Shown here: positions 1 through 36,850 of the stretch, one piece after another
Numbering within the stretch: the stretch's first letter is position 1
Layout: each line of letters opens with the position of its first letter
NCBI GenBank assembly: GCA_948468685.1
Contig: CAOKJC010000001.1
Location: forward strand, 1-37,387
Source of the DNA: an uncultured Clostridium sp.
GTDB lineage: Bacteria > Bacillota > Clostridia > TANB77 > CAG-508
DNA: 37,387 bases
Direction: 5' to 3'
Translations under genes and position numbers: made by a program
The notes under the pieces: generated by a model
What the model was told of the DNA's origin: nothing
What the model saw: only the letters and a program-made list of their open reading frames with translations
The model's database searches: none

Positions 1-3000
1 TTCCTGGTACTAATCCTGTAAAACTAAATTCTCCATTATTTCCTGTCATATATTTTGCATCTGTTATTATAACATTTCCAGCTCTATCTAAATTATATAA
101 TTTAGTAGTATTATTTCCATTGCAGTCAATTATTTGTACATCTACATTACTTAATGTCTTCTCTCCATTGTCATATATACCATTTCCTTTTCTTTCTTCT
201 CCAGTTTTTAATTCTGGTCCTAAGTTAGTATAGTCTTCATATACTAATCCTGAAATAACTTTTGAATCTTTTCTTTTAAATTCTAATCCTGGTGCAACAT
301 CTGTGTCATCTTCATATGTATCAAAATTGCCTTTTTGTATATTGTCTGGTGCTGAGTCTTTGTCAATTCCTCCATATCTATTTCCGTTTTTATCCCATGT
401 TGAATATGAACTTATTTCTGTAATGTTGTCATCCATTTTTAATGTTTCGCCATCTTTTAAATTTGCCATTTCTATTATTGTATCTGTATTTAGCTCATAT
501 ACTAAATACACATATATACATTCTGATGGGGCTATATCAGCTTTAACTTCTTCTGATTGCCATACTCCATTACCTGCTAAATTCCAATTTACTGGTACTT
601 GATTTCCATTTCCATCTAAATAATATGAATATGAGTAATTTAATCTACTGTCCGCATAATTTTTTAAGCTTGCTCTTGATATTAAACTTCCACTTTCATT
701 TTTAATTGCTATATTATATTTAACAAATACTCTTAATCTATCATTCCTGTCTTTATTAGCTTTTGTATATGCTATATATGAGTCATATATTTCTCTTGTA
801 TATGAACAATTATATGTTCCATTTCCTCTTTTTACTCCTACTGAGAATCCATCTAATACTGCATCATATCCTGGGTTTATATCTTTATCTGGTATTCCTG
901 TATTGTTCATATATGGTGATCTACTCTTATATTCATATGTATGACTATATGAACCATTTATTGTAAGTTGTATATCCTCTATATCTGTTGCAATTGCTAA
1001 ATCTGGTTGTGATCTTTCAAATATTCCTAAATTTATGTCTTTTACTCTACGTATTCCTGCATTCCATTTAATTTGATATCCTGCTGTTGTAGTATCTGCT
1101 ACCATTAAAGCACTATTTTGAGGATCTACACTTCCCTCTAATGACTGTGCAGTATATCCTGTATTTTGTATTAATTCAGAAGTTCCTAGTATTGGTTTAG
1201 AATATTTTAATTTTACTTCTAGTCCAGTTCTATCTTTTTGAACATTATAGAATTTTTCATTTATACCATTTCTATCTTGTTCCATTTCCATTACTTTTGA
1301 ACCATTTTCTGAATCTAGATTTTTTACTACTTTTTCATATTTTAAACCGTTATATTCAAATTGTACACTATATTGTGATAATTGTTCTATAACAATTTCA
1401 TAATTACTTCCTTTTGCTTCGAATAAATATTCTCCTTGTGCTCCTGTTATTGTTTCTGATATAACTTGTCCATTTTTCTTTAGGAATACTTTCAATCCTT
1501 GTACCTTTTTGTCTTTTGATCCATTAATATATAGATTGTCTCTTACAGTTTCTTTTCCATCTCCAATGTCTTCCCACACATATCCTGTTATATCTACACG
1601 AATTTGTTTATTATCAACTTGTCTCATTGTAACAACTGGTGTAGATGCTCCATTATAATTATTGTCAAGTTTTACTTCATATGGTTCTCTTATATCATAA
1701 TATTGTGCTATTTCATCTGGTAATTTTATTTCTTCAATATAATAATTATAATATTGTGGCAAATTATCTATTTCAAATGCTGAATCTTCTCCTTTTGTTG
1801 TAAATATTTTAGCTCCTGTTACATTTCCTGTTGTAGTTGGTATTATTTCATATTTTTTCTCTCCAGAATCATATTCTTTTAATTCTGCCATATATCTTTT
1901 AGTTGTTTCTCCTGGTAAACTATATGAAATAACAAAGTCTATATTTTGTAATACTAAATCTTCTAATGATGTTTTTCCTGTATCCTTATCTATCTTTTGT
2001 ATTTTTAAATTTCCATACAATCTATTTTTATATTCAACTGTAACTATTCCATTACCAGTTGCAACAGAAGTAATTGGATATGAATTAGGATTTTGTTGTG
2101 ATTCTTGTATAGCTGTTTTATCTTCTTGTACAATAACTTCTTTCTTTATTAGTTGTAATTCAAGATTATAATTACTTGGTGCCTTCGTTTCTGTAATTAC
2201 ATAATTTCCTATTGGTAAGTTATCTATCCTTAATATTCTTGTGTCTGGAATTGTAACATTCATATTTATATATCTTGGGTCAGTTGGATTTAAATTGTTT
2301 GTAATATTAAATTGTGCCCCATCCAATTTTTGCTTTGTATCATAATCTGTTTTCATAAGAATAAGGTGTCCACGTTTTATAACATCTTGTACTACGACTC
2401 TAAAACCTTCAAGATAATTTCCATTATTTGTATCTAAAGTTATTATTCCTGACATATTATACCATGGTTTATATTTGTCTGGTAAATTTACCTCTTCAAT
2501 TCTATATGTTCCCATTGGCATATTGTTTAATATAATATCCCCACTAGAGTTTGTTGTAAATTTCGTTGCATTGTTTTTACTTGATATTAATGTACTAGGC
2601 TTTAATATTCCATTTTCTTTTCCATTATCTCTTGTAAGATATCCATTTCCATCTGCTGTTTGTACATAAATATAAAATTCTACTCCATCCATTGTGGCTT
2701 CTTTTTGGAATACTTTTTTGTTTATTACTATATTAGTAAATTTTCTATTTTTAATAGTTACTGGTGTAGTTCTTCCATTTAACACACTTGCTGTTACTAC
2801 AGTAGTTCCTAATTCATTTTGTAAATTCAAATCATATCCAGATGGTGCTCCTATTTCTGTTACTTTATAATTACCTGGAATCAAATTTTCAAATAAATAT
2901 GTTCCACTTGTCATTGTAACTGTTTTACTATATTCTACATTTATTCCATCTAAACGTATTGTTGCTCCTGATATCATTTGATTTGAATCTGTATCTTTTT

Positions 3001-6000
3001 TTGTAACTTCTATTTTTCCTTTAGGCATATCAACTACCCATTTAAGTTGTTTGCTTACAGTTTTTGTTTCATACCTTGATTCTACTTTTGCTTTAGTATA
3101 TGACTGTGGATGACTTGTTTCATTATTACACTCTGCACAAAGATCATAATACTCTCTAATTGTATCATCTTTAAATTTTGGATCAGATTTTCCACAGGCA
3201 TCATAATGTAAAGCATATACTTTGCTAACACTTTTTGATATTGTATATTGAATATTAGCAGTTACCTGTATACCTTTTAAAACATCGTCCACTAATAAAT
3301 AAAAGTTTTTGCCTTGTAAATTACTTATTTGTTTATTTGTTATTTTATTAGAACTATAATTATTTCCATCATATATTTCATAGTTTATTGTTTTTCCATT
3401 ATTGTCTCTTACTACTAATGTATTATAATTATCTAATTCATATTCTGAGTTTGATGAAGAACTTGTAAAATAAAATGGTCCAATAAATACTTTATCCTCA
3501 ACATATTCATGAGTATTAATATCTATTTCATTTTTACTTGTACTAACTGTTGTTCCTGGTATTTCAAAATCTTTTTCTTTAAATCCCATTTTTATTGCAA
3601 GTGGTCTATTATCATAATCTGGATCTTCTGGATAATAACCTGAAGAATTATATTTCTGCTGCCAGTACTGTCCTCCACCTAAACCATTTACTAAAGATTT
3701 AAAATCATAATATATTTTTGAGGCAGATTGATTAAGTCTATATAAATGATTTGTTGGATTATCACTTTTATAATCTCCACAAGTTTCATGATCTGAAATG
3801 CTTGTACAGGTATACAAATCCTTTAAATAACTTCCTCTACTATTTTGTGCAGTAGCATCATGACCATATGCTAAATTCATATATTTCCAACATGGATTAT
3901 TACCAGCCCATATTGCAATGTATCCTACATCATGTACAGTTATTATTACATAATCGGGTTGCCCCCTATATGATCCGCTACTAACAGTTGTCAATACAAC
4001 CTCTGCTTTTGTGCTTGTTCCTATTGTACAAATTATAGTACTAAACAAAACAAAAACTAACATTTTCTTATTTATTTTTTTACTTATACATAAATATACT
4101 AAAACTATTAAAACTATTAATATTCCAATAATTCTGATTACATTTATTACTACTCCTGTTTTTACAGAAACAATAAATTCTGCCTCTGAATAATCATCTT
4201 CTGCTTTATTTTTATTATTTTCTGTTGAGTCAATATCCTTTAATTTATAAACATTATCTGTATTGCCTATTTCTGCTGAATTTATTATTCTTGCTACTTT
4301 TCCTTTTACTGTTAATACTAAGGTTACTTCTCTACTTTCTCCTGGTTCAATTCTTTTATCTGCTAATTCTTTTGTTACAATGCTTCCATTATTAGTTTTA
4401 TCCCATTTTATATTATTAATTAGTGCATTATATTCTAATCCCTCTGGAATATAGTCAATAATTTCTTTTGCAAATCCACTCACATTACCTTCATTAGTTA
4501 CTACAATTTTATATTTTATATCTATTTCAGTACTATTTATTTGTTTTGCTGGTATCTCAACTTTTGCTAATTTAGAATTATTAAATTCATATATTTTTTC
4601 TTCTTTACTGTTTTTTACTATAACTTCTGAAACATATTTATCTAATTTTAGGTCAAATTTATGTTCAACAGTTAATCCCATATCTATATTGTCATAATTT
4701 TTATTTAATATAATAGTATCTGTTACACCAACATTAAGTATCTTTCCATCTATATTTACTTCTTTTTCTATAGCATCCGAATTCTTTGTTTCACTTACTG
4801 ATTTTTGTTGATATGTAGTTATATCGTACTTGTCTGTATCATACTGAAATAAAACAATATATTTTCCTTCTTTTATGTCTTTAAATTCGTAATATCCATT
4901 TTTGTCTGTTGTTACTTTTTTTATATTATTATCTTTATCAACTACTATTGCTCCTGTTTCTATATCAAATAATTTTACAATAATTCCTGATAGTAATTCT
5001 TCTCTTTCTTCTCTTTGTCCATTTTTATTTTCATCTATCCAAATAACACCACTTATATTATATTTATTTTCAACATTTGGTTTATCAGGTTTGTCAGGAG
5101 TATCAGGATTGTATGGATTATCTGGATTATCAGGATTATCTGGATTGTTTGGATTGTCTGGTTCTTCTGGATTATCTGGATTGTTAGGATTGTCTGGTTC
5201 TTCTGGATAATCTGGTTTGTTTGGATTATCTGGGTTGTCTGGGTTCTCTGGCTGTTCTGGATCTTCTATTTCTTCAAAATTATAATGCAAAAGTTTATTT
5301 TTTATTCCATTTGATGTTCTAGTAAATACATCTTCTCCTACAATTGTTGCTACATTTATAACATCCTTATCCTCATATAATAAATCTACTTCACATTTTA
5401 TTTTGATTTGCATTGTTTTCTGTTCTGGTATAATTATATCTATTTTAAAATCTTCTTGTTGTTCTCCCTCAGCCTCTACTTGTTGGGATATATCTAAATT
5501 TTCAATCCTTTTTTCATATTCTTTTTTATCTTCATTCCAATCATAGTACTCATATTCTGCTGAAACAGGAATTAAACCTTCTGGTAAATCATCTGTTATT
5601 TTTATTAATGCTGGTATTTTTCCTTCATTTTTAACAACAAAATTATATTCAATTTCATCTCCATATTTTAATGTCAGACCTTCTTGTTCACTTGTTTGAA
5701 TAATAGAAATTTTTGCAACTTCAACTTCTTTTACTACAAGATTTGACCTATATGTTTCTTCATTCATATAAGATAAAGCATATAATTCAACATCATAATC
5801 ATATTTGTAATCTTCAAATTTGTTTGCCTCTACAAGTAATTTAATAGATGTGATCTTATTTGCTTCCATTTCATTATATTTTACTGTAACTGTCCCTGTT
5901 TCATTATCATAATCATTCTCATCAAAATATCCTGTTACCGCTAAATATTCTAACTCTTTTCCAATAAAAATTTTAACTGTAACATCTCTTAAAGTTTCAT

Positions 6001-8281
6001 TTGTTAAATTATTAACTTCTAAATAATAATTATAATAATATCCAGACCCATTATTTAAATCTACTGGATTAAAGGCATCTACTCTAATTTTTGCACTTTT
6101 ATATATAAAACTCATCTTTTGTTCATTCACTTTTTGTTCTTCAACAAAAAATTCAAATATATTTTCAATTGTAGTTTCTTCTGTCATTTCTTCAACAAGT
6201 ATATCATATACAACTTCATAAACCTCTCCTGGAGCTAAAAAGTCCCTATTTATTTCACATTGTGAAATATCTTTATTTATATTCCATAATCTATTAGTCT
6301 TATTCCCTGAAATAGTTCCTTCTAAATTTTCGTTAGAAAATCTTTCATTTCTTGTTGCATATACAAGTCCATCAGGAAGTTGATAAATCCCTTTTATATT
6401 ATTTATTACTTCTTCTGTTTCATTTTTCAATTTTACAGAAAATGAAATAGCTTCTCCCTGATATACTATATCATTTTCTTTTAATATATCTTTTCCTACT
6501 TGTGCTTTAACATCTATTGTTAATTTGTTAGTACTCTCAGTCTCATTATTTTCATTGTTCTCTTTATTGTTTTCATCATTTACTACACTCAGATTTTGTT
6601 GAAAATTTAAAACATTTTTAATATTTACATTAATTTGTTTATTTTCATTTCCCTCTACATTATAATCATTTATATTTCCTATTTCATTTGTATATGTATA
6701 TTCAATACTAGTTTCTTCTGAAATACTTTCCTTTTCTATTATAATTGTTGCTGGAATTAATAGTTCTGTACCAGATGTCATTGAATTTTTACAATATTCA
6801 ATTTGTTCTCCGTTCAATTCCACTCTAATAATCTTATAATCATTTTCTTCTACAATTCCAGTTTTCTCTATTTCTAGTCCGTTTGCATATAACAAAGAAG
6901 CTTCTTGTAAAATAACTTTTTCAACTTGCTTTGGTAATTTTATTTCAATACTAGGATTTTTAAATAAATTATTTTTATTATCTGTTGTTACTAAAGTTGC
7001 TTTAAATATAACATCATTTTGTATATTGTTTGTCCAATTAATTGTATCAACAGATAAATCTATTTTTGATACTGCTTCTTTAATTTCTATTATATGATAA
7101 TCTAAACAATTATGTATTCTTTTTCTTTCTACATCTTGCTTAATACATTCAATAGTATTTTGATAATATATCTTATCAATATCAGTATTAATTACATTTG
7201 ATTTTATTTCTCTTTTATTTTGTAATAATATTGTTCCTACATTTAGTGGCTTACTTGTTTTAACTATTATTTTATCTATATCATGATCATATATAAATTC
7301 ATATATGCCATTATCTTCAAATTCTGTATCTTTATTAATATCAGCTAATATGTCTCCATTAATATTTAATATTTGTAAATAACCATCTTCTCCTAATACA
7401 TTTTGTAAATTTTCTTTACTTACTTTTGTTGATTTATATACAATATCATCTACTTCAAAAATATTATCTTTATTATCTAAAAAAACATTTTCAATATTCA
7501 AAAATATTTCATCAGAAATATCTTTTTTGCTTATATTCATTTCAACATTTTCTATAAATTCTGTATTATAATTTGTTCCATTTTCCTTATTAGCCTTTAT
7601 ATAACCATTATATATTTCAGAAGTTTTTATATTTGTAGATACTATTTCTGAAATGTTTTCTGTAACAAAAAAATTTTCTTCAACATCTTTTTTTATTTGA
7701 ATATCATTACTAATGTTTGTTTTTATATTACCTAATATACTTAATTCTCTTTCTTCTCTTTCTTCTTTATAGCAATTTGAACTATAATAGCAAATAATTG
7801 TATATTCGTCTTTAGATTCTTTAATGTTTTGGTTGTAATCACTGATTTCTTCGTTATTTTCTACTATAATTTCTATATTTCCATTTTCTTTATCATATTG
7901 ATATTTAAAGTCTTTTTCAATTTTACTTCCATTTGTTTCATGAGTAGGTAATTCTATAATTTCGACACTTTCTGGATACTCATTTTCTATTTTAGGTAAT
8001 CTTAAAGATGTTTCTGTAGATGTTATTCTGTCATAATCAATCTCTTCTAAATATTCAATTCCACTTTTTAAGTCTAATTGCACTAAAGTTCCTTTTTCTT
8101 CTTCAATACTATAATTAACATATTTTTGTATATTTATTTCATATGCTAAGTTAATTTTATTTTTGTCTATAATTTTGCTTACATCATTAATAGCAATAGA
8201 TACTACCTTTAAAAAAGAACTATTAATAAATAAAACTGCTAATATACAAACTATAATTAAATTTTTTAAAAACGCTTTCAT
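1..8281 (-). CDS. Giant cell-surface adhesin-like protein, partial (runs off left edge; at least 2760 codons open)
   Basis: Absent from the ORF track because no stop lies in the window. Hand translation of the minus strand from ATG 8281 (AGGAGAAAGTTT directly upstream) stays open to position 2, and 8281..2 is divisible by 3. Frame spot-checked at about 7140, 6060, 5400, 4200 and 2700. N-terminus MKAFLKNLIIVCILAVLFINSSF looks like a Sec signal peptide. Recognisable modules: DUF11/CARDB-like (IKYKIVVTNEGNVSGFAKEIIDYIPEGLEY), SdrD-B-like (ISGVIWIDENKNGQREE...DKNGYYEFKDIKEGKYIV; ITGYVWEDIGDGKE...GAQGEYLFE), Cna-B/SpaA-type (GKIEVTKKDTDSNQMISGATIRLDG...GTYLFENLIPGNYKVTEIGAPSGYDL; LPIGNYVITETKAPSNYNL). 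All listed plus-strand ORFs at 303-5314 are antisense shadows. Confidence 0.85.
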   Translation of the reverse strand, partial: MKAFLKNLIIVCILAVLFINSSFLKVVSIAINDVSKIIDKNKINLAYEINIQKYVNYSIEEEKGTLVQLDLKSGIEYLEEIDYDRITSTETSLRLPKIENEYPESVEIIELPTHETNGSKIEKDFKYQYDKENGNIEIIVENNEEISDYNQNIKESKDEYTIICYYSSNCYKEEREERELSILGNIKTNISNDIQIKKDVEENFFVTENISEIVSTNIKTSEIYNGYIKANKENGTNYNTEFIENVEMNISKKDISDEIFLNIENVFLDNKDNIFEVDDIVYKSTKVSKENLQNVLGEDGYLQILNINGDILADINKDTEFEDNGIYEFIYDHDIDKIIVKTSKPLNVGTILLQNKREIKSNVINTDIDKIYYQNTIECIKQDVERKRIHNCLDYHIIEIKEAVSKIDLSVDTINWTNNIQNDVIFKATLVTTDNKNNLFKNPSIEIKLPKQVEKVILQEASLLYANGLEIEKTGIVEENDYKIIRVELNGEQIEYCKNSMTSGTELLIPATIIIEKESISEETSIEYTYTNEIGNINDYNVEGNENKQINVNIKNVLNFQQNLSVVNDENNKENNENNETESTNKLTIDVKAQVGKDILKENDIVYQGEAISFSVKLKNETEEVINNIKGIYQLPDGLVYATRNERFSNENLEGTISGNKTNRLWNINKDISQCEINRDFLAPGEVYEVVYDILVEEMTEETTIENIFEFFVEEQKVNEQKMSFIYKSAKIRVDAFNPVDLNNGSGYYYNYYLEVNNLTNETLRDVTVKIFIGKELEYLAVTGYFDENDYDNETGTVTVKYNEMEANKITSIKLLVEANKFEDYKYDYDVELYALSYMNEETYRSNLVVKEVEVAKISIIQTSEQEGLTLKYGDEIEYNFVVKNEGKIPALIKITDDLPEGLIPVSAEYEYYDWNEDKKEYEKRIENLDISQQVEAEGEQQEDFKIDIIIPEQKTMQIKIKCEVDLLYEDKDVINVATIVGEDVFTRTSNGIKNKLLHYNFEEIEDPEQPENPDNPDNPNKPDYPEEPDNPNNPDNPEEPDNPNNPDNPDNPDNPYNPDTPDKPDKPNVENKYNISGVIWIDENKNGQREEREELLSGIIVKLFDIETGAIVVDKDNNIKKVTTDKNGYYEFKDIKEGKYIVLFQYDTDKYDITTYQQKSVSETKNSDAIEKEVNIDGKILNVGVTDTIILNKNYDNIDMGLTVEHKFDLKLDKYVSEVIVKNSKEEKIYEFNNSKLAKVEIPAKQINSTEIDIKYKIVVTNEGNVSGFAKEIIDYIPEGLEYNALINNIKWDKTNNGSIVTKELADKRIEPGESREVTLVLTVKGKVARIINSAEIGNTDNVYKLKDIDSTENNKNKAEDDYSEAEFIVSVKTGVVINVIRIIGILIVLIVLVYLCISKKINKKMLVFVLFSTIICTIGTSTKAEVVLTTVSSGSYRGQPDYVIITVHDVGYIAIWAGNNPCWKYMNLAYGHDATAQNSRGSYLKDLYTCTSISDHETCGDYKSDNPTNHLYRLNQSASKIYYDFKSLVNGLGGGQYWQQKYNSSGYYPEDPDYDNRPLAIKMGFKEKDFEIPGTTVSTSKNEIDINTHEYVEDKVFIGPFYFTSSSSNSEYELDNYNTLVVRDNNGKTINYEIYDGNNYSSNKITNKQISNLQGKNFYLLVDDVLKGIQVTANIQYTISKSVSKVYALHYDACGKSDPKFKDDTIREYYDLCAECNNETSHPQSYTKAKVESRYETKTVSKQLKWVVDMPKGKIEVTKKDTDSNQMISGATIRLDGINVEYSKTVTMTSGTYLFENLIPGNYKVTEIGAPSGYDLNLQNELGTTVVTASVLNGRTTPVTIKNRKFTNIVINKKVFQKEATMDGVEFYIYVQTADGNGYLTRDNGKENGILKPSTLISSKNNATKFTTNSSGDIILNNMPMGTYRIEEVNLPDKYKPWYNMSGIITLDTNNGNYLEGFRVVVQDVIKRGHLILMKTDYDTKQKLDGAQFNITNNLNPTDPRYINMNVTIPDTRILRIDNLPIGNYVITETKAPSNYNLELQLIKKEVIVQEDKTAIQESQQNPNSYPITSVATGNGIVTVEYKNRLYGNLKIQKIDKDTGKTSLEDLVLQNIDFVISYSLPGETTKRYMAELKEYDSGEKKYEIIPTTTGNVTGAKIFTTKGEDSAFEIDNLPQYYNYYIEEIKLPDEIAQYYDIREPYEVKLDNNYNGASTPVVTMRQVDNKQIRVDITGYVWEDIGDGKETVRDNLYINGSKDKKVQGLKVFLKKNGQVISETITGAQGEYLFEAKGSNYEIVIEQLSQYSVQFEYNGLKYEKVVKNLDSENGSKVMEMEQDRNGINEKFYNVQKDRTGLEVKLKYSKPILGTSELIQNTGYTAQSLEGSVDPQNSALMVADTTTAGYQIKWNAGIRRVKDINLGIFERSQPDLAIATDIEDIQLTINGSYSHTYEYKSRSPYMNNTGIPDKDINPGYDAVLDGFSVGVKRGNGTYNCSYTREIYDSYIAYTKANKDRNDRLRVFVKYNIAIKNESGSLISRASLKNYADSRLNYSYSYYLDGNGNQVPVNWNLAGNGVWQSEEVKADIAPSECIYVYLVYELNTDTIIEMANLKDGETLKMDDNITEISSYSTWDKNGNRYGGIDKDSAPDNIQKGNFDTYEDDTDVAPGLEFKRKDSKVISGLVYEDYTNLGPELKTGEERKGNGIYDNGEKTLSNVDVQIIDCNGNNTTKLYNLDRAGNVIITDAKYMTGNNGEFSFTGLVPG
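4004..4168 (-). other. In-frame internal anchor-like segment followed by a signal-peptide-like segment (predicted central transmembrane hairpin)
   Basis: Translation reads ...AEDDYSEAEFIVSVKTG-VVINVIRIIGILIVLIVLVYLCI-SKKINKK-MLVFVLFSTIICTIGTSTKA-EVV... This is a xxKTG motif, a hydrophobic helix and a basic tail (like a C-terminal sorting/anchor signal), immediately followed by Met (ATG 4063-4061), a hydrophobic stretch and an AxA-like site (like an N-terminal signal peptide). No stop codon and no SD between them (AGTAAAAAAATAAATAAGAAAATG). Confidence 0.6.
5079..5267 (-). repeat. Tandem 9-nt-periodic repeat encoding a Pro-rich PxNPD/PEEPD linker; includes a 36-nt tandem duplication (5133-5168 / 5169-5204, 1 mismatch)
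   Basis: Plus strand reads ggattatct/ggattgttt/ggattgtct/ggttcttct units. Minus-strand translation is PEQPENPDNPDNPNKPDYPEEPDNPNNPDNPEEPDNPNNPDNPDNPDNPYNPDTPDKPDKP. The GLSGLSG and WIIWIV ORFs in the track are antisense frames of this repeat. Confidence 0.8.
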
Positions 8282-8313
8282 AAACTTTCTCCTAATTAAA
8301 TTATCTTACAATA

Positions 8314-23834: not shown

Positions 23835-23865
23835 TGTGTCAAAAGGGACGCCCTTTTTTGACACA
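23835..23865 (+). repeat. REP-like palindromic hairpin, subfamily TGTGTC (copy A1)
   Basis: TGTGTCAAAAGGGACGCCCTTTTTTGACACA. On the minus strand it ends at GACACAAAGGAGG, so it abuts the tilS SD. Confidence 0.85.
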
Positions 23866-23870
23866 TTTTT

Positions 23871-23900
23871 ATACCAAAAGGGACACCCCTTTATTTCCAC
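23871..23900 (+). repeat. Degenerate REP-like hairpin (A2)
   Basis: ATACCAAAAGGGACACCCCTTTATTTCCAC. Same CCAAAAGGGAC core with a decayed right arm. Confidence 0.45.
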
Positions 23901-23923
23901 AAAAATTTTTATATTATCATTTT

Positions 23924-24634
23924 TTATTCACTTTGAACTCGCCTAACTTTTTCTCTAGATATTTTTAAATACATTGCAATTTTTCTTAAGGATACATCAT
24001 ATTTATCTTCTAATATCGTAATCAATTCTTTAATATTTTTTCTATTATCCTTTAGTTCTTCCAATCGCAAATTATTATCAATTAAATACTTTTCTATCAA
24101 TTCTTTAATTTCTTTTTCTGTCTGTTCTTCATCTTCTAAAAATTTAATGTTATCATCTTTTTCACTACATACATTGTTAATATCTCTCAAATCAAATTCA
24201 AAATTATTATAACTGGAATATTTATATTCATATGGATATCTACAAATTCTTGCCTTAACTGGATTATTATGTATATAATTGATACACACATATAATTGTT
24301 TTTCAGAATAAATTCCTTGACTCTTATATCTATCTCTATACACATATCCAACTCTATTATACTTTTTGTTATAATACATAGCATATAAAGTATTAACTTT
24401 ATGCATAAAGTCACTTAGTTCTTTGACTTCTTTAATCTCTACTAATAAATGAACATGATTATCCATTACACAATGTGCAACAACTTTCACATCACATTGA
24501 TTTTCTATCTTTTTCATAATTTTCAAATATTCTTCTTTATCATTGTCATTATCATAGATATATTCTTTATTCAATCCTTGAACCATAAGATGAAAAAAAG
24601 AAGATTTTATATAACTTCTTGACATTCTAGCCAT
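23924..24634 (-). CDS. REP-associated tyrosine transposase-like protein (IS200/IS605 Y1 HUH family, COG1943-type) with a C-terminal HTH-like tail
   Basis: HUH motif DNHVHLLV, GYVYRDRYKS, catalytic-Tyr motif YVCINYIHNNPVKARI. C-terminal VSLRKIAMYLKISREKVRRV resembles an HTH. Confidence 0.8.
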   Translation of the reverse strand: MARMSRSYIKSSFFHLMVQGLNKEYIYDNDNDKEEYLKIMKKIENQCDVKVVAHCVMDNHVHLLVEIKEVKELSDFMHKVNTLYAMYYNKKYNRVGYVYRDRYKSQGIYSEKQLYVCINYIHNNPVKARICRYPYEYKYSSYNNFEFDLRDINNVCSEKDDNIKFLEDEEQTEKEIKELIEKYLIDNNLRLEELKDNRKNIKELITILEDKYDVSLRKIAMYLKISREKVRRVQSE

Positions 24635-24680
24635 ATTCCCAACCTTTCCGTCCCAAATTATATTTTTCTTCCCCTTTTAC

Positions 24681-24709
24681 ATAATATACCTTTATTTAAA
24701 ACTTGTCAA
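24681..24709 (-). promoter_or_regulatory. Near-consensus promoter of the RAYT gene
   Basis: TTGACA (24709-24704), 17 nt spacer, TATTAT (24686-24681), inside the hairpin-bounded unit. Confidence 0.5.
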
Positions 24710-24745
24710 TAAATTTGCTACAATATACTAAAATTTAGCATTTAT

Positions 24746-24771
24746 GACTCAAAAGGTTGTCCCTTTTGGTC
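24746..24771 (-). repeat. Degenerate REP-like hairpin (B1)
   Basis: GACTCAAAAGGTTGTCCCTTTTGGTC. Its reverse complement resembles A2. Confidence 0.45.
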
Positions 24772-24777
24772 TATTTT

Positions 24778-24808
24778 TGTGTCAAAAAAGGGCGTCCCTT
24801 TTGACACA
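24778..24808 (-). repeat. REP-like palindromic hairpin, subfamily TGTGTC (copy B2), exact reverse complement of A1
   Basis: TGTGTCAAAAAAGGGCGTCCCTTTTGACACA. Starts 0 nt after the dnaB stop codon (TAA = 24811-24809). Confidence 0.85.
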
Positions 24809-26146
24809 TTAATCATCAAATCTTTTTTCCAAATTAACAAATTTAGTATAACTTCCTAGCCATCCTAAATCTACTGTTCCTGTTGAACCACCTCTATGTT
24901 TTGCAATTATTACTTCTGCTATATTTTTTCTTTCACTGTCTTCATTATAATAATCATCTCTATATAAAAACATAACAATATCAGCATCTTGCTCTATTGA
25001 ACCAGATTCACGCAAGTCTGATAGCATTGGTCTATGGTCTGGTCTTTGCTCAACAGCTCTTGATAATTGTGAAAGTGCTATAACTGGAACATCTAATTCT
25101 TTTGCTAAAATCTTTAATGATCTACTTATTTCTGCTATTTCTTGCTCTCTACTTCCACCTCTAGTTCTATTACTTCCTTGAATTAATTGCAAATAATCTA
25201 TAACAACTAGTCCTATATTTTTTTCTAATTTTAATTTTCTACATTTTGCCCTTATTTCCATAACAGATATACCTGGTGTATCATCTACATATATACCCGT
25301 TTCTGAAAGTGGCCCTATTGCTTCTGCAAGTTTTGCCCAGTCTTCGTCTTCTAATTTTCCTGTTCTGACCTTATTACTATCTACCATCGCTTCACTACAC
25401 AAAATTCTATTAACCATTTGTTCTTTTGACATTTCTAAACTGAAAATTGCTACTGGTGCATTTCCTCTTAGTGCCGAATTTGTAGCTATGTTTAATGCAA
25501 ATGCTGATTTTCCCATAGCTGGTCTTGCTGCTATTAATATAAATTCAGAACCATGTAATCCTGCTGTTCTATAATCTAAGTCTGTAAATCCTGTTGGAAC
25601 ACCTGTTATATGTTGCTTTCTATTATATAACTCTTCAAGTTGTGTAAAACTGTCTACTAATATATCTTTTATTGGTGTATATCCTTTTTGGTCTTTATTT
25701 TGCATTAAGTTAAATATTTTCTTTTCTGCACCTTCCATAATATTTTCAACTTCTTCTGTTGTATCATATCCTAATTCTATTATTTCATTTGCAGTTTTTA
25801 TTAAATTTCTTAACACAGATTTTTCTTCTACTATTTTTATATATTTTGCAATATTTGCAGTAGTTGGAACTTTTTCTGGTAATTCTGCTAGATATTCAAA
25901 TCCACCAACTTGTTCAAATTTTCCCATCAACTCTAATTCTGCTTTTACTGTAATTAAATCTATTGGCTCTGCTCTATTATATAAATTTAACATTGCTGAA
26001 TATATTAATCTATTATCTTCTCTATAAAAATCTTCTTCTTTTAAAACTTCTATACTACTTGATACAGCCTCTTTGTCTGTAAGCATACTTCCTATTACTG
26101 CTTGTTCCGCTTCTATATCATGTGGTGGTACTTTTCCAATATCCAT
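24809..26146 (-). CDS. dnaB: Replicative DNA helicase (DnaB family; DnaC in Bacillus nomenclature)
   Basis: PHDIEAEQAVIGSML N-terminus, Walker A ARPAMGKSAFALN, ...VIDYLQL..., SQLSRAVEQR. Confidence 0.95.
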   Translation of the reverse strand: MDIGKVPPHDIEAEQAVIGSMLTDKEAVSSSIEVLKEEDFYREDNRLIYSAMLNLYNRAEPIDLITVKAELELMGKFEQVGGFEYLAELPEKVPTTANIAKYIKIVEEKSVLRNLIKTANEIIELGYDTTEEVENIMEGAEKKIFNLMQNKDQKGYTPIKDILVDSFTQLEELYNRKQHITGVPTGFTDLDYRTAGLHGSEFILIAARPAMGKSAFALNIATNSALRGNAPVAIFSLEMSKEQMVNRILCSEAMVDSNKVRTGKLEDEDWAKLAEAIGPLSETGIYVDDTPGISVMEIRAKCRKLKLEKNIGLVVIDYLQLIQGSNRTRGGSREQEIAEISRSLKILAKELDVPVIALSQLSRAVEQRPDHRPMLSDLRESGSIEQDADIVMFLYRDDYYNEDSERKNIAEVIIAKHRGGSTGTVDLGWLGSYTKFVNLEKRFDD

Positions 26147-30143: not shown

Positions 30144-30174
30144 TGTGTCAATAGAGACGCCCTTTTTTGACACA
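30144..30174 (+). repeat. REP-like hairpin (copy C1), intermediate between the two subfamilies
   Basis: TGTGTCAATAGAGACGCCCTTTTTTGACACA followed by TTTTTATG, as at A1. Confidence 0.8.
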
Positions 30175-30180
30175 TTTTTA

Positions 30181-30205
30181 TGTCAAAATTGAACATCCCT
30201 ACTGA
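30181..30205 (+). repeat. Degenerate REP-like hairpin (C2)
   Basis: TGTCAAAATTGAACATCCCTACTGA, in the same position relative to C1 as A2 is to A1. Confidence 0.35.
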
Positions 30206-32132: not shown

Positions 32133-32163
32133 TGTGCCAAAAAGGGACGTCCCTATTGGCACA
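32133..32163 (-). repeat. REP-like hairpin, subfamily TGTGCC (copy D)
   Basis: TGTGCCAAAAAGGGACGTCCCTATTGGCACA, identical to 35060-35090. Overlaps the last codons and the stop of the MMPL gene. Confidence 0.85.
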
Positions 32164-34222
32164 CTTTTTTCATTCCAACTGTTGTTTTACAAATAATCTT
32201 ATCAAACAACATTAAAAACGCTGGCAATACCATAATTACACTAATCATACTAACAATAGCACCTCTAGACATTAAAGTACATAGAGAACCTATCATCTCT
32301 ATTTTTGAGCAAGCTCCAACTCCAAATGTTGCACCAAAGAAACACAATCCACTAACAATAATTGAACTTATTGAAGTTCCTAGAGCTTCATCAACCGCCT
32401 CTTTCTTTGATTTTCCTTCTTTTCTAAAACTTACAAACTTAGTTGTAATTAATATTGCATAATCTATTGTTGCACCTAATTGTATTGTTCCAATTACTAT
32501 TGATGCAATAAATGGCAATGTTGTATTTGTATATGTTGAAAGTCCCATATTTATAAATATAGCAAATTCAATAACTGTCATTAATATTACAGGCAATGAA
32601 ATTGATTTTAATACAAATATCATAATTATAAATATAATTACAATTGATACTCCATTTACGCTATTAAAATCATGGTCACTTATTTCTACTAAATCCTTCA
32701 TAAGTGGTCCTTCTCCTGCTAGTATTGAATTTTCATCATATACTTTTATTATTTTATTTACTTCATTAATTTGTTGGTTTAACTCATCTGTTGCCATTTC
32801 ATATTTAGAATTTATTATAACTAATTGATACTTATCATTTTCAAAGATTGATTTTACATCTTCTGATAATATATTATCTGGAAGTTCAGTTCCTGCTATC
32901 TTTGAATACCCTAAAGCCCATTCAATTCCATCTATTTTTTCGATTTCTTTTAACATTTCATTAACTTTATAATTTGGAACATCCTTGCTAATTAAAGCTA
33001 ATTCTGTTGATACCATATTAAAATCATTTTTTAATGCATTATTTGCTTCGACACTTAATAGTGTATCTGGTAATGATTTATCTAAATTATAATAAACACT
33101 TATATTACTATATCCATATACTGCAAATGGTAATATTATCAAAAATACTACTATTATTGCTTTATAATGTTTTATATTGAAATTTTTTAATATTTCAAAT
33201 TTTGGTAATATTTCTTTATGCTTTGTTTTTTCAATCCATTTATCAAATACTAAAAGCATTGCTGGTAATATTGTTACAACACTGACAACTCCAAGAAATA
33301 CTCCTTTTGCCATAACAATTCCAATATCTTTTCCTAAGCTTAAATTCATACTACAAAGTGCTAAAAATCCTGCTATTGTTGTTAATGAACTTCCTACAAC
33401 TGACACTAATGTTTTTGATATCGCATGTGCCATTGCCTCATCATTGTTTATGTACTTTCCTTTTTCTGCCTTATAACTGTGATATAAGAATATTGCAAAA
33501 TCCATAGTTACTCCTAATTGAAGTACTGCGCTTATTGCTTTTGTTATGTATGATATTTCTCCCAAAAACACATTTGAACCCATATTATATAAAATTGCTA
33601 TTCCTATATTTAATAATAAAAATAGTGGCGCTATATATGAATCTAAAGCTAGTTGTAAAATAATTAAGCATAATACTACTGCTATAACTACATATATTGC
33701 TATTTCTGAATTAGACAAATCTCTTGTATCTAAAACAGTTGCTGACATTCCACTTATTTTGCATTGCTTGTCTGTTAAATTTCTTAGTTCTTCAATTGTT
33801 GACATTGTACTATCTGAAGAAATTCCATCTTTAAATGTTACAAGCATTGGTGTACTTCCATCTTTATAAATCTTATTTGTTATTTCTTCTGGCAATACCT
33901 CTACTGGTATGTTTGAACCTAATACATCTGCAATACTTATAACATGCTCTACATTATCTAGTTTGCTTATTTGTTTTTCTAATTTCTGAATATCCTTAAT
34001 ATTCATGTCTTCAACTATAACAACTGAAAATGCTCCCATATCAAATTGTTCTGATAAAATTTTCTCACCTTTTATTGTTTCTATATTATCTGGCAAGTAA
34101 ACTAAAATATCATAATTGATTCTAGTTGCTTTTATCCCTATAATTGAAGGAATTAATAATAGTATCGCTATTATCAATATTAATTTTTTGTACTTACATA
34201 TTTTTTCTGCAAATTTTAACAT
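32153..34222 (-). CDS. MMPL-family (RND superfamily) membrane transporter
   Basis: Two repeated halves, each an extracytoplasmic domain plus a bundle of about 5 TM helices (12 TM overall). Start reassigned to ATG 34222 (AAAGGAGAGGGAGATAAGA-ATG), because the track's TTG at 34339 lies inside the operator region. Divergent TetR neighbour. Confidence 0.8.
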   Translation of the reverse strand: MLKFAEKICKYKKLILIIAILLLIPSIIGIKATRINYDILVYLPDNIETIKGEKILSEQFDMGAFSVVIVEDMNIKDIQKLEKQISKLDNVEHVISIADVLGSNIPVEVLPEEITNKIYKDGSTPMLVTFKDGISSDSTMSTIEELRNLTDKQCKISGMSATVLDTRDLSNSEIAIYVVIAVVLCLIILQLALDSYIAPLFLLLNIGIAILYNMGSNVFLGEISYITKAISAVLQLGVTMDFAIFLYHSYKAEKGKYINNDEAMAHAISKTLVSVVGSSLTTIAGFLALCSMNLSLGKDIGIVMAKGVFLGVVSVVTILPAMLLVFDKWIEKTKHKEILPKFEILKNFNIKHYKAIIVVFLIILPFAVYGYSNISVYYNLDKSLPDTLLSVEANNALKNDFNMVSTELALISKDVPNYKVNEMLKEIEKIDGIEWALGYSKIAGTELPDNILSEDVKSIFENDKYQLVIINSKYEMATDELNQQINEVNKIIKVYDENSILAGEGPLMKDLVEISDHDFNSVNGVSIVIIFIIMIFVLKSISLPVILMTVIEFAIFINMGLSTYTNTTLPFIASIVIGTIQLGATIDYAILITTKFVSFRKEGKSKKEAVDEALGTSISSIIVSGLCFFGATFGVGACSKIEMIGSLCTLMSRGAIVSMISVIMVLPAFLMLFDKIICKTTVGMKKVCQ

Positions 34223-34252
34223 TCTTATCTCCCTCTCCTTTAACAATTGTTT

Positions 34253-34341
34253 AAATGACCATCGGTCATTTTTATATATAATACTACCTTTATGACCATT
34301 AGTCAATAGTTTTTTTAAAAAACATTGACCTTTAGTCAAAT
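34253..34341. promoter_or_regulatory. Three TGAC-N5-GTCA operator-like palindromes overlapping divergent promoters (TetR/MMPL control region)
   Basis: O1 AAATGACCATCGGTCATTT (34253-34271), O2 ATGACCATTAGTCAAT (34292-34307), O3 ATTGACCTTTAGTCAAAT (34324-34341). MMPL promoter on the minus strand: TTGACT (34306-34301), 17 nt spacer, TATTAT (34283-34278). tetR promoter: TTGACC (34325-34330), 16-17 nt spacer, TAATAAT. Confidence 0.55.
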
Positions 34342-34976: not shown

Positions 34977-35007
34977 TGTGCCAATAGGGACGTCCCTTTT
35001 TGGCACA
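34977..35007 (+). repeat. REP-like hairpin, subfamily TGTGCC (copy E1), exact reverse complement of E2 and D
   Basis: TGTGCCAATAGGGACGTCCCTTTTTGGCACA, 5 nt after the tetR stop. Confidence 0.85.
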
Positions 35008-35023
35008 TTTTAAATTACAATTT

Positions 35024-35055
35024 TCACATCAAATAAGAGTATCTCTTTTGACTCA
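35024..35055. repeat. Degenerate REP-like hairpin between E1 and E2
   Basis: TCACATCAAATAAGAGTATCTCTTTTGACTCA (TCAAATAAGAG-TAT-CTCTTTTGA). Confidence 0.35.
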
Positions 35056-35059
35056 TTTC

Positions 35060-35090
35060 TGTGCCAAAAAGGGACGTCCCTATTGGCACA
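35060..35090 (-). repeat. REP-like hairpin, subfamily TGTGCC (copy E2)
   Basis: TGTGCCAAAAAGGGACGTCCCTATTGGCACA. Overlaps the last codons and the stop of feoA. Confidence 0.85.
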
Positions 35091-35431: not shown

Positions 35432-36850
35432 TTATAATTTATGCTCTCTTGCAAAAGCCTCTGCATCTTGATTCATTTCTCTCTTTACATTTTCGACAAT
35501 CTGCTCATTAGATAATCGATCTTTATTTTCATACATTTCTCTTAATAATTTATCTTTAACTTCACTTTCGGAAAAAACTTCCTTAATCTTTTCGTCTCCC
35601 TCTTCATTTTCATAATTAAAAATTTCTGTCACATAACTATTTAACGCTTCTTCTGACAAATGACTATGTGTTTTAGTATATTCTAATCCATCATAATCTT
35701 TAGCATTTGTAGGATTGCATCCTTCTTCAGTATGTTCTTCAACTTCATTTTGTATTCTTTCTTTTTGCTCAATTCCTTTATTTCTATTCATTATCTCTTT
35801 TGTTTCAATTGGAATAACTGGTGTCTTTGAAGTCTCAATTTGAATACCTACATTTTCATTCTCTTCTAATGTTTTCTGATACATAAACATTTGAACACTG
35901 CCTTGACTGTTTTCACATCCTATACTTATTCCATTAGATTTTCTTGTATAAACTGATAAATCTTCATTATCTCTTGTTGCTGTTCCATCTGCTCTTATTT
36001 TAGTTTGTTCTCTACTTGCATTATTTCCTACTGTTTTGTCCATTTCAAATTCATCATTTAAAACTCTTGCTTCTCCATCCTTTGTCATTCCAACTAATGA
36101 ATATGTTGTATTATTTATTTTTGAATTAGCTGTAACTTCTTTTACTTTTTCAGAATAAACAACATATACACTATCATATTCTTCTAAATCTAATCTTTTT
36201 CCTAAAGTTTCTTTCCCATCTACTAATTTATTTAAGTTAGCCTTTTGAATTCCATTTACTTTGATTTTTTCAGATTGTTTTTCAGATAAATCGTTTTCAT
36301 CTTTATCTTCACGTTCTTCTTTTTCCTCATTTAGCTCTTCGATTTCTTCTTTATCCATTTCTTCTAAAAGTTCCTCAACTTCATCCTCTGAAACTTCTTT
36401 TCCTAAATGAGCTGTTAAAACTTCTGAAAGTTCTTTTCTTTTTAAAGCATTTAATGAATTTGCTTCTATTTCTTTTTCCGATGTTCTTTCTAATAATTCA
36501 TTAACAGCTTGCATTTTATCTAGCTCTGAATTTTCAAAACTTGAATTATATGCTATTTCATTGTCTCCTATTGTGCCACCAATACATTTATCTCCCAAAT
36601 AATAATTTTTTTGCTCTGTTATCCTCTCTTTCCCTTCTTCGTCAATTTCTTTAATTTGTTTTTCTACTATAAATAAGTTTTCTGAGATTGGTTTTCCATT
36701 AATTTTGTCTTGCCATGTTGCTTGTCCTACAAATTTTATATCTTTTATTGATACTTCTCTATTTTCTTTTTGATTTTTTATTAATTCATTTTCTATTGTA
36801 TCTTTTAAGTCTTCTTCTAATTCTAATATTTCTTTTTCTCTTTGATTCAT
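35432..36850 (-). CDS. Hypothetical highly acidic protein (472 aa), no family recognised
   Basis: Long ORF with consistent codon usage. Candidate promoter TTGACA (36924-36919), 16 nt spacer, TATAAT (36902-36897). Glu/Asp/Lys-rich central linker (EDEVEELLEEMDKEEIEELNEEKEEREDKDEND). Confidence 0.5.
   Translation of the reverse strand: MNQREKEILELEEDLKDTIENELIKNQKENREVSIKDIKFVGQATWQDKINGKPISENLFIVEKQIKEIDEEGKERITEQKNYYLGDKCIGGTIGDNEIAYNSSFENSELDKMQAVNELLERTSEKEIEANSLNALKRKELSEVLTAHLGKEVSEDEVEELLEEMDKEEIEELNEEKEEREDKDENDLSEKQSEKIKVNGIQKANLNKLVDGKETLGKRLDLEEYDSVYVVYSEKVKEVTANSKINNTTYSLVGMTKDGEARVLNDEFEMDKTVGNNASREQTKIRADGTATRDNEDLSVYTRKSNGISIGCENSQGSVQMFMYQKTLEENENVGIQIETSKTPVIPIETKEIMNRNKGIEQKERIQNEVEEHTEEGCNPTNAKDYDGLEYTKTHSHLSEEALNSYVTEIFNYENEEGDEKIKEVFSESEVKDKLLREMYENKDRLSNEQIVENVKREMNQDAEAFAREHKL

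Follow-up and report, generated by a model that had tools for sequence, protein, structure and literature searches.

Most known cases of a tyrosine transposase accompanying dispersed repetitive extragenic palindromes (REPs), in the systems called REPtrons and REPINs, come from Proteobacteria (PMC3116915; PMC5581495). The TIRYT enzymes and TIRtrons of Di Nocera et al. 2013 (PMC3733652) are equated with TnpAY1 subclass 2.1 (PMC6006769) and with Group 1 of the RAYTs, tyrosine transposases associated with REPs (PMC5581495). Members of subclass 2.1 or Group 1 are long proteins with a C-terminal extension of the helix-turn-helix (HTH) type (PMC6006769; PMC5581495), the extensions recorded in subclass 2.1 being Bac_DnaA_C, HTH_23 or HTH_28. 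The terminal inverted repeats (TIRs) of TIRtrons share the motif GGGGWSAS and in some families are self-complementary, moderately abundant and dimeric; the accompanying survey of tagged REPs covered eight phyla and leaves the Firmicutes unmentioned (PMC3733652). Group 1 RAYTs, which occur in Clostridia, are single-copy genes whose flanking 16-mers are found only about 12 times (Bertels et al. 2017, PMC5581495).

The locus considered here lies in a 37,387-nucleotide stretch (the window) of contig CAOKJC010000001.1 from an uncultured gut Clostridia bacterium, and holds, between dnaB and tilS, the gene of a Y1 HUH transposase enclosed by inverted hairpins that recur nearby and in related genomes. 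The reading favored here, with a probability of about 0.75, is that of a REPtron/TIRtron-type system, in which the Y1 HUH transposase, a domesticated enzyme encoded once, is accompanied by hairpin repeats that populate the intergenic DNA of a clade of low-GC gut Clostridia. It should be noted that the relatives used for comparison are all metagenome-assembled genomes (MAGs) or metagenome contigs and that the source genome is covered over ~47 kb.

The transposase and its locus

The features under discussion, in window coordinates, are as follows.

23924–24634, minus strand: Y1 HUH transposase gene (TIRYT/RAYT Group 1 type), 236 aa, assigned by Pfam, NCBIfam, fold and homologue motifs
24681–24709, minus strand: sigma-70-type promoter TTGACA-17-TATTAT of the transposase gene, 11/12 positions matching
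24648–24657, minus strand: conserved leader motif TTTGGGACGG, ~15 nt 5' of the start codon
23835–23892, plus strand: left (gene-3') 58-nt arm, outer hairpin 23835–23865 plus inner GGGACAC-motif hairpin 23866–23892; abuts the tilS Shine-Dalgarno sequence
24751–24808, minus strand: right (gene-5') 58-nt arm, outer hairpin 24778–24808 plus inner hairpin 24751–24777; starts 0 nt after the dnaB stop
30144–30205, plus strand: solitary arm in the gap separating gdpP from the gene upstream of it, outer hairpin 30144–30174 (2 mismatches) plus decayed inner part
32133–32163, minus strand: solitary C-type hairpin (TGTGCCAA...TTGGCACA), overlapping the end of an MMPL-family open reading frame (ORF)
34977–35090, both strands: inverted doublet of C-type hairpins, 34977–35007(+) and 35060–35090(−), exact reverse complements

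The minus strand encodes gdpP, rplI, dnaB, the transposase, tilS and ftsH alike. An original prediction, made from the sequence alone, had read the locus as a REP/RAYT system and had given the ORF with its motifs DNHVHLLV, GYVYRDRYKS and YVCINYIHNNPV, its promoter, and its placement; the ORF (236 aa), its motifs, the promoter and the placement were confirmed, the right hairpin being separated by 0 nt from the dnaB stop codon (24809–24811) and the tilS Shine-Dalgarno sequence (AAGGAGG) immediately adjoining the left hairpin. In 6 orthologous loci the promoter elements TTGAC and TATTATGTAAA are invariant, and the leader motif stands at a comparable distance from the start codon in all 6, locus L011 having GGGGACAG at this position. 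The leader motif resembles the GGGACG core of the hairpins and the published TIRYT motif GGGGWSAS (PMC3733652), and could be an autoregulatory site or the relic of a third hairpin.

The protein matches the Y1_Tnp profile (PF01797) over residues 14–124 with 52.4 bits against a cut-off of 23, and so passes the test of family membership that had been proposed for it. The best NCBIfam model is that for REP-associated tyrosine transposases, NF047646, with 69 bits, while the IS200 model NF033573 gives 27 bits against a cut-off of 55. A search of the PDB with the single sequence matched no transposase; with a profile of 73 homologues the top match was E. coli TnpAREP (4ER8; E=3e-4), IS200-type TnpA following at ~0.13. 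An AlphaFold2 model (pLDDT 86.6, pTM 0.79) likewise retrieved 4ER8 first (E=5e-7, TM 0.69), then ISDra2 and IS608 TnpA, and the top 30 Foldseek matches are all Y1 transposases, the domain identified by this whole-model search being the N-terminal one alone. H60, H62, Y120, N124 and P125 are invariant in the 73 homologues (44–80% identity); H60-V-H62 constitutes the HUH, Y120 is the single catalytic tyrosine, and Y120-IHN-N124-P125 corresponds to Y-x3-NP, the signature of class 2 (PMC6006769).

When set against the sequences that Di Nocera et al. aligned for RAYTs and TIRYTs (PMC3733652, Additional file 5), the family profile scored 61–122 bits over residues 1–145 with 14 of the 17 TIRYTs used, including Geobacter gbm 2474, Hahella hch 1378 and the Firmicute Desulforudis dau 2153, and 23–55 bits with five canonical REP-associated RAYTs. 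Identity to TIRYTs in blastp is 25–32% over residues 1–144 or more, and the TIRYT-like motifs MPRxPR, QG.N, C.M.NHVHLL, Y..YYN..Y.R.G...R.YKS and Y...NPVKA...YSSY are present. Residues ~165–236 form a helical, HTH-like tail, which AlphaFold2 models as five helices (169–235, pLDDT ~90) and in which S215, R217, R227, E228 and R231 are invariant or nearly so in the homologues. All HTH matches of the tail (HTH_60, Sigma70_r4, HTH_28, HTH_23) are sub-threshold, NCBIfam adds weak sigma-70 region 4 matches, and the tail gave no sequence match to the C termini of the published TIRYTs, the profile alignments ending at ~145 and once at 192. Judged from these sequence relationships, the protein is a member of the TIRYT, RAYT Group 1 or subclass 2.1 branch rather than a RAYT of the GTAG-REP kind; the REP/RAYT reading holds in essence and is refined as regards the branch.

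The exact protein is recorded on 13 contigs, none from a closed genome, and 10 of these places were examined. Where flanks are available, tilS lies downstream, and dnaB lies upstream on five long contigs. The same slot between dnaB and tilS is held, on the same strand, by homologues of 80, 61 and 56% identity and by 53–55% homologues in UMGS1516 and in a Hadza gut MAG; the orthologous locus of UMGS1516, URZW01000007.1 (L057), has ~83–89% nucleotide identity to the window. The exact protein was thus found at one locus only, the outcome of a check for multiple copies that had been suggested with the original prediction, and the 0.8 Mb of hairpin-bearing loci contain only four transposase matches. 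The dN/dS of the transposase relative to its orthologues is 0.21–0.24, a constraint 3–10 times laxer than that on dnaB, rplI and ftsH, and in the closest pair its dS is about that of the neighboring genes. These values indicate purifying selection and, together with the synteny, vertical descent of a working gene. Homologues of 45–49% identity occupy two other loci, one between a ClpB-like and an NlpC/P60 gene and one between divIVA and a uvrB-like gene, both stable across many contigs.

The hairpin family, its link to the enzyme and its turnover

In the window, TGTGTCAAAAGGGACGCCCTTTTTTGACACA is present at 23835–23865(+) and its exact reverse complement at 24778–24808, as had been predicted, and 0 of 100 shuffles gave such a match. 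The GC-rich hairpin core is conspicuous in a window of 26.3% G+C; the 58-nt arms are 88% complementary and each has a weaker second hairpin 35 nt further in. Folding energies as single-stranded DNA were −9.8 kcal/mol for the outer hairpins (z about −5), −4.8 and −7.7 kcal/mol for the inner hairpins, and −10.5 kcal/mol for the C-type copies (z −6.8). With 150 members of the family as its basis, a covariance model found exactly six strong copies (23835+, 24778−, 30144+, 32133−, 34977+ and 35060−; E 5e-16 to 4e-14), found none in window positions 1–23.8 kb, and did not recover the inner hairpins of the arms; its next-best matches, at 35621 and 36700, are not significant (E ~0.3–0.4). Of the solitary copies named in the original prediction, the four strong ones (30144, 32133, 34977, 35060) were therefore recovered and the two degenerate ones only partly borne out. 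The 9.4 kb beyond the right end of the window contain no further hairpin copy, and no Rfam family was matched in the whole window at gathering thresholds. The doublet at 34977–35090 has its hairpins 52 nt apart between convergent genes, and 30175–30205 is a decayed inner-arm remnant beside the 30144 copy. At the gene itself an inner hairpin is present in each arm, as had been predicted; although described there as decayed, it belongs to the arm as a conserved component, because the same two-part arm is found in the gene-less elements of the MAG JAAWDR01 described below. The MMPL-family ORF at 32153–34339(−) has its stop and last codons inside the hairpin at 32133–32163.

A scan of 596 Gb, one genome per species, for the 25-nt pattern GYCAAWRGRGACGYCCHTTTTTGRC gave matches in at least 108 stretches, spread over 28 or more species-level genomes, against ~0.3 chance matches estimated, which establishes in related gut Clostridia MAGs the excess of solitary hairpins that had been anticipated. 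Among the matches listed, to which the following counts of hosts, copies and pairs also refer, all are MAGs that bear the label uncultured Clostridium or Clostridia and come from the gut of human, rabbit, mouse, chicken or roe deer, and viral contigs that were searched gave no hairpin match. Strict copies number at least 15–19 in the best-sampled genomes. The repeats are strongly intergenic: ORFs of 100 aa or more make up 82% of the retrieved DNA, and only 22 of 175 copies overlap one. Pairs within 200 nt are predominantly of one polarity (29 '+-', 2 '-+', 3 '++' and 3 '--'), with a '+-' spacing of 35–163 nt that falls within 107 nt in 28 of 29; for 101 of the 175 copies, no strict partner is present at this distance. 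A '+ ... -' pair also encloses the transposase gene. The spacers of doublets are unrelated in most genomes, and one MAG has a conserved two-arm unit three times.

In an alignment of 150 distinct copies, 88.8% of cells pair, versus 46–59% with the structure slid. Pair 9–31, which the search pattern does not impose, is U-A in 135, C-G in 14 and broken in 1. Outside the core, complementarity is partial, and many copies in one genome have 'hybrid', non-complementary outer arms. The core, GGGACGCC or GGGACACC, matches 6–7 of the 8 positions of GGGGWSAS, and the L011 leader GGGGACAG matches 8/8. The family consensus is flanked by nAAnnn...nnnTTT, many copies having A-runs 5' and T-runs 3'; the two hairpins that flank the gene are followed on the coding strand by AAAATAG and AAGGAGG, with no T-run, and so do not have the form of intrinsic terminators, T-runs being found at some solitary copies.

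The enzyme and the repeat occur together at four loci. At all orthologous loci the gene lies between inverted hairpins with the core GTCAAWAGGGACGCCC..TTTTTGAC, and the outermost stem varies with compensation (TGTG/CACA, CTGG/CCAG, GTTG/CAAC). The repeats of the 45–49% homologues, TGTGTCAAAAGGGACGGGGCAYTTTGACACA and TGTCAWTGGGGACGGAGATTWTTGACA at the two loci, are inverted and share the left half and outer stem with the window hairpin, but are not palindromic inside; GTCAA..GGGACG and TTGAC are common to these repeats and the window hairpin. At the fourth locus, in another MAG, a 38%-identical paralogue of 259 aa lies between queA and a NUDIX-like gene/tgt (L078 773–1638; L135 2913–3780), flanked by the C-type hairpin TGTGCCAAAGGGGACGTCCCTTTTTGGCACA with both copies in the same orientation, the 3' one encoding the last residues of the ORF. 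This paralogue may be the partner of the C-type copies in the window; a protein of the queA-tgt type was found in other samples of the same ERZ accession series. Since four loci bring together four related proteins and four related repeats, a chance association of enzyme and repeat is very unlikely. In L130, L131 and L132 (~4860–4875, 5700–5730), which carry an identical distant homologue, the bases just outside the flanking repeats differ, and L131 has a partial duplication, TGTCAAGGGTGTCAAGGGGACGG, at the repeat boundary.

Which orthologous junctions are occupied varies with the species. The junctions gdpP|rplI and rplI|dnaB hold copies in L014 that are absent from the window. In the Hadza MAG the tilS side of the gene bears three copies, one of which falls within the tilS ORF, the opposite side bears two, and dnaB|gdpP has a doublet. 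In the same MAG (L049 7200–7270; L115 1205–1279, CAKPAB010000010.1) the rplI-dnaB block is inverted when compared with the window and the other relatives, with hairpins of opposite orientation at both boundaries, which is consistent with an inversion that occurred between hairpins; the suggestion that the cassette marks a rearrangement seam gains indirect support in this way, through a related MAG. In JAAWDR01 three dispersed elements of ~125–135 nt (L060 5441–5562; L084 6789–6919; L129 781–912) reproduce both 58-nt arms of the window cassette, joined by a short AT-rich spacer with no ORF, each arm comprising the outer hairpin, TTTTT and ACCAAAAGGGACAC, and are miniature RAYT-less derivatives of the cassette.

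Turnover is also seen between strains. The window is 99.99% identical over 13924–34634 to ENA ERZ14863986 NODE_325 and 99.8–99.9% identical to MAG GCA_948436985.1. The doublet 34977–35090, which the window shares with three other assemblies of the species, is replaced in NODE_325 (99.8–99.99% identical elsewhere) by one perfect 30-nt palindrome, TGTGCCAATAGGGAC|GTCCCTATTGGCACA (L140 11757–11793), made of the 5' half of one hairpin and the 3' half of the other. The change amounts to 84 nt, and both breakpoints are at the hairpin centre, GGGAC|GTCCC. Such a collapse could be the result of cleavage and rejoining mediated by the enzyme or, equally, of slippage across a long palindrome, and it would also explain hybrid arms.

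Several further observations concern the same junctions. The 5' end of tilS in relatives holds an extra in-frame hairpin (L014 7812–7842; L016 10800–10830, also L017–L021; L049 6212–6250; L057 2052–2090), TilS then starting M-EKK-SCQKGASLLT-EVLETIKKYNL where the window has M-LEK-VLNTIKKYNL; the extra stretch is either an in-frame insertion of 30 nt (~10 residues) or a sequence upstream of a TTG start inside the 3' arm of the hairpin. The copy is absent from the window and from L011. In one species with the identical transposase, the gdpP|rplI spacer ranges from 123 to 502 nt (L016 7629–7995, L017, L018, L019, L021): L016 and L021 contain an unrelated insertion of ~245 nt whose ends are long and inverted (GGTAGCTAAGAAGATAATAG...), L018 is without it, and L017 has a different, longer insert. 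Some contigs start or end in or beside the flanking hairpins, namely L010 (window 23841–24807), L007 (which ends at window 24774), L012 and L013, and many homologues are known from contigs of ~900–1100 nt alone; the inverted arms evidently break short-read assemblies. At a distance from the cassette, a single ORF of at least 2768 aa occupies window positions 2–8305(−), with the signal-like N-terminal sequence MKAFLKNLIIVCILAVLF; because it runs off the window start, the first 8.3 kb are without a long entry in the ORF list.

Interpretation and alternative readings

According to the REPtron/TIRtron-type reading, the transposase would be expressed from its own promoter, the gene lying between the two 58-nt inverted arms, and would bind the single-stranded form of the hairpin, as is the case for E. 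coli TnpAREP. Y120 and the HUH-bound metal would then cleave and rejoin the DNA, so that nonautonomous hairpin elements would be mobilized or rearranged and the gene would stay in place and be inherited vertically. Movement of hairpins by the enzyme, its cleavage site, and any benefit to the host are parts of this scheme that we infer.

A number of points weigh against this reading. The NF047646 score of 69 bits is under the NCBIfam cut-off of 80 for RAYTs. The 150 aligned copies have no conserved GTAG or GTGG adjoining the hairpin, and hence lack the GTAG foot of canonical REPs, and the complementarity of the distal stem within genomes is partial. Copy numbers are modest, being tens per genome (as lower bounds) and not hundreds, and the six copies in ~47 kb of the source organism are all within 11 kb. 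Quentin et al. 2018 found no REP-like sequences for subclass 2.1 (PMC6006769). The case for cleavage and mobilization of the hairpins by the enzyme is an indirect one, and the collapse of the doublet could equally be due to replication slippage across a long palindrome.

A variant of the scheme takes the Group 1/TIRYT enzyme to be actively mobilizing REPIN-like Firmicute hairpins by acting at their centre, GGGAC^G, and not at a foot, with doublets, mini-cassettes and the cassette itself arising through insertion into, or excision from, the loop. It is compatible with the 84-nt polymorphism, in which both breakpoints are at the hairpin centre, with the frequency of hybrid distal arms, and with the retention of GGGACG even in the non-palindromic repeats of the distant homologues. 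The geometry would differ from that of IS200/IS605 elements and of E. coli TnpAREP, and this variant is considered unlikely.

A second alternative, regarded as quite unlikely, is that the hairpins are RNA or DNA elements of the host (terminators, mRNA stabilizers or supercoiling sites) selected for their effects on expression, the transposase-like protein having been co-opted and no longer moving them. Copies do lie at gene ends, many have the 5' A-runs and 3' T-runs described above, the hairpin at 23835 was flagged as terminator-like on the plus strand by a scan, copy number is low, and Group 1 RAYTs have been viewed as co-opted single-copy genes (bioRxiv 10.1101/2021.07.10.451892). However, the gene-flanking hairpins have no T-run in the direction of transcription and no Rfam family was matched, and this alternative does not account readily for related inverted repeats at each of four unrelated enzyme loci, the strong dominance of one doublet orientation, dispersed RAYT-less mini-cassettes, or in-frame copies inside coding sequence.

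It is improbable that the palindromes are double-stranded operators bound by the C-terminal HTH or by another regulator, with the protein serving mainly as a regulator or architectural factor. The conservation of the HTH-like tail (S215, R217, R227, E228, R231), its sub-threshold HTH and weak NCBIfam sigma-70 region 4 matches, the symmetry of TGTCAA...TTGACA, and the conserved GGGAC motif in the leader of the gene itself would suit such a role, but a protein that did nothing except regulate could dispense with its catalytic HUH and Tyr motifs, which are invariant under purifying selection. Several stem variants are found within one genome, the hairpin arms are asymmetric (4 A versus 5–6 T), and the change from T-A to C-G keeps pairing in 14 of 15 C-type copies, a compensation that fits base pairing better than a fixed half-site.

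Finally, an ordinary autonomous IS200/IS605-family insertion sequence that landed by chance between dnaB and tilS would share the Y1_Tnp domain, terminal hairpins and own promoter, but is almost certainly not what is present, given an exact protein at this locus only, a position kept down to 53–56% protein identity, flanking hairpins that are inverted and not on the same strand, the low score with the IS200 model, no tnpB, hairpins that greatly outnumber the gene, and viral contigs without a hairpin match.

Relation to described systems and implications

The REPtron/TIRtron-type system proposed here resembles TIRYTs and TIRtrons in the motifs of its enzyme, a long protein with an HTH-like extension encoded by a single-copy gene, and in long flanking inverted repeats with a motif of the GGGG/GGGAC type, and it agrees well with the account of TIR families that are self-complementary, moderately abundant and dimeric. 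It differs in that the tail has no sequence match to the published C termini, in that GGGGWSAS is matched in part, and in that the repeat is a full hairpin with REP-like behavior (intergenic, in doublets and in mini-cassettes). With E. coli TnpAREP and its REPtron (4ER8) it has in common a single-copy gene, inverted cognate hairpins and extragenic repeats, whereas it lacks the GTAG foot, has ~16–22% identity, and has tens and not hundreds of copies; the E. coli enzyme, in turn, is without the HTH tail. The REPIN-RAYT systems of Pseudomonas (Bertels & Rainey 2011, PMC3116915) show the same inverted doublets within 130 nt, one dominant polarity, a RAYT inside a '+ ... -' pair, vertical inheritance, and more than one repeat subfamily with possibly more than one RAYT, but belong to Group 2 or 3 and not to Group 1; the populations here are much smaller and the spacers mostly unconserved.

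The Y1 HUH fold is shared with IS200/IS605 elements (IS608, ISDra2), whose subterminal hairpins are recognized as single-stranded DNA, but those are multicopy or mobile units, unlike the present one with its inverted ends, lack of tnpB and IS200 score below cut-off. The in-frame hairpin in the 5' end of tilS in relatives, with ~10 residues added, recalls the Rickettsia palindromic elements, with the difference that one gene only is affected here and that a downstream TTG start is an alternative for tilS. The system is an unusually clean TIRtron-like member in a phylum and habitat without a characterized one, and not a new kind; the novelty claimed for it initially holds in the former sense and is limited by the previous report of Group 1 RAYTs in Clostridia (PMC5581495).

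RAYT Group 1, or subclass 2.1, is the largest branch of the RAYTs and has been described without a REP partner, and here a Group 1-type enzyme is tied to a hairpin family. With a hairpin of 31 nt, a protein of 236 aa and a highly conserved core, the system would provide a compact test of repeat mobilization by Group 1 enzymes. In practical terms, the hairpins disrupt the assembly of metagenomes and can mislead gene calling in these Clostridia MAGs. The lineage belongs to the abundant uncultured gut Clostridia, and knowledge of REP/RAYT biology has up to now been almost wholly proteobacterial.

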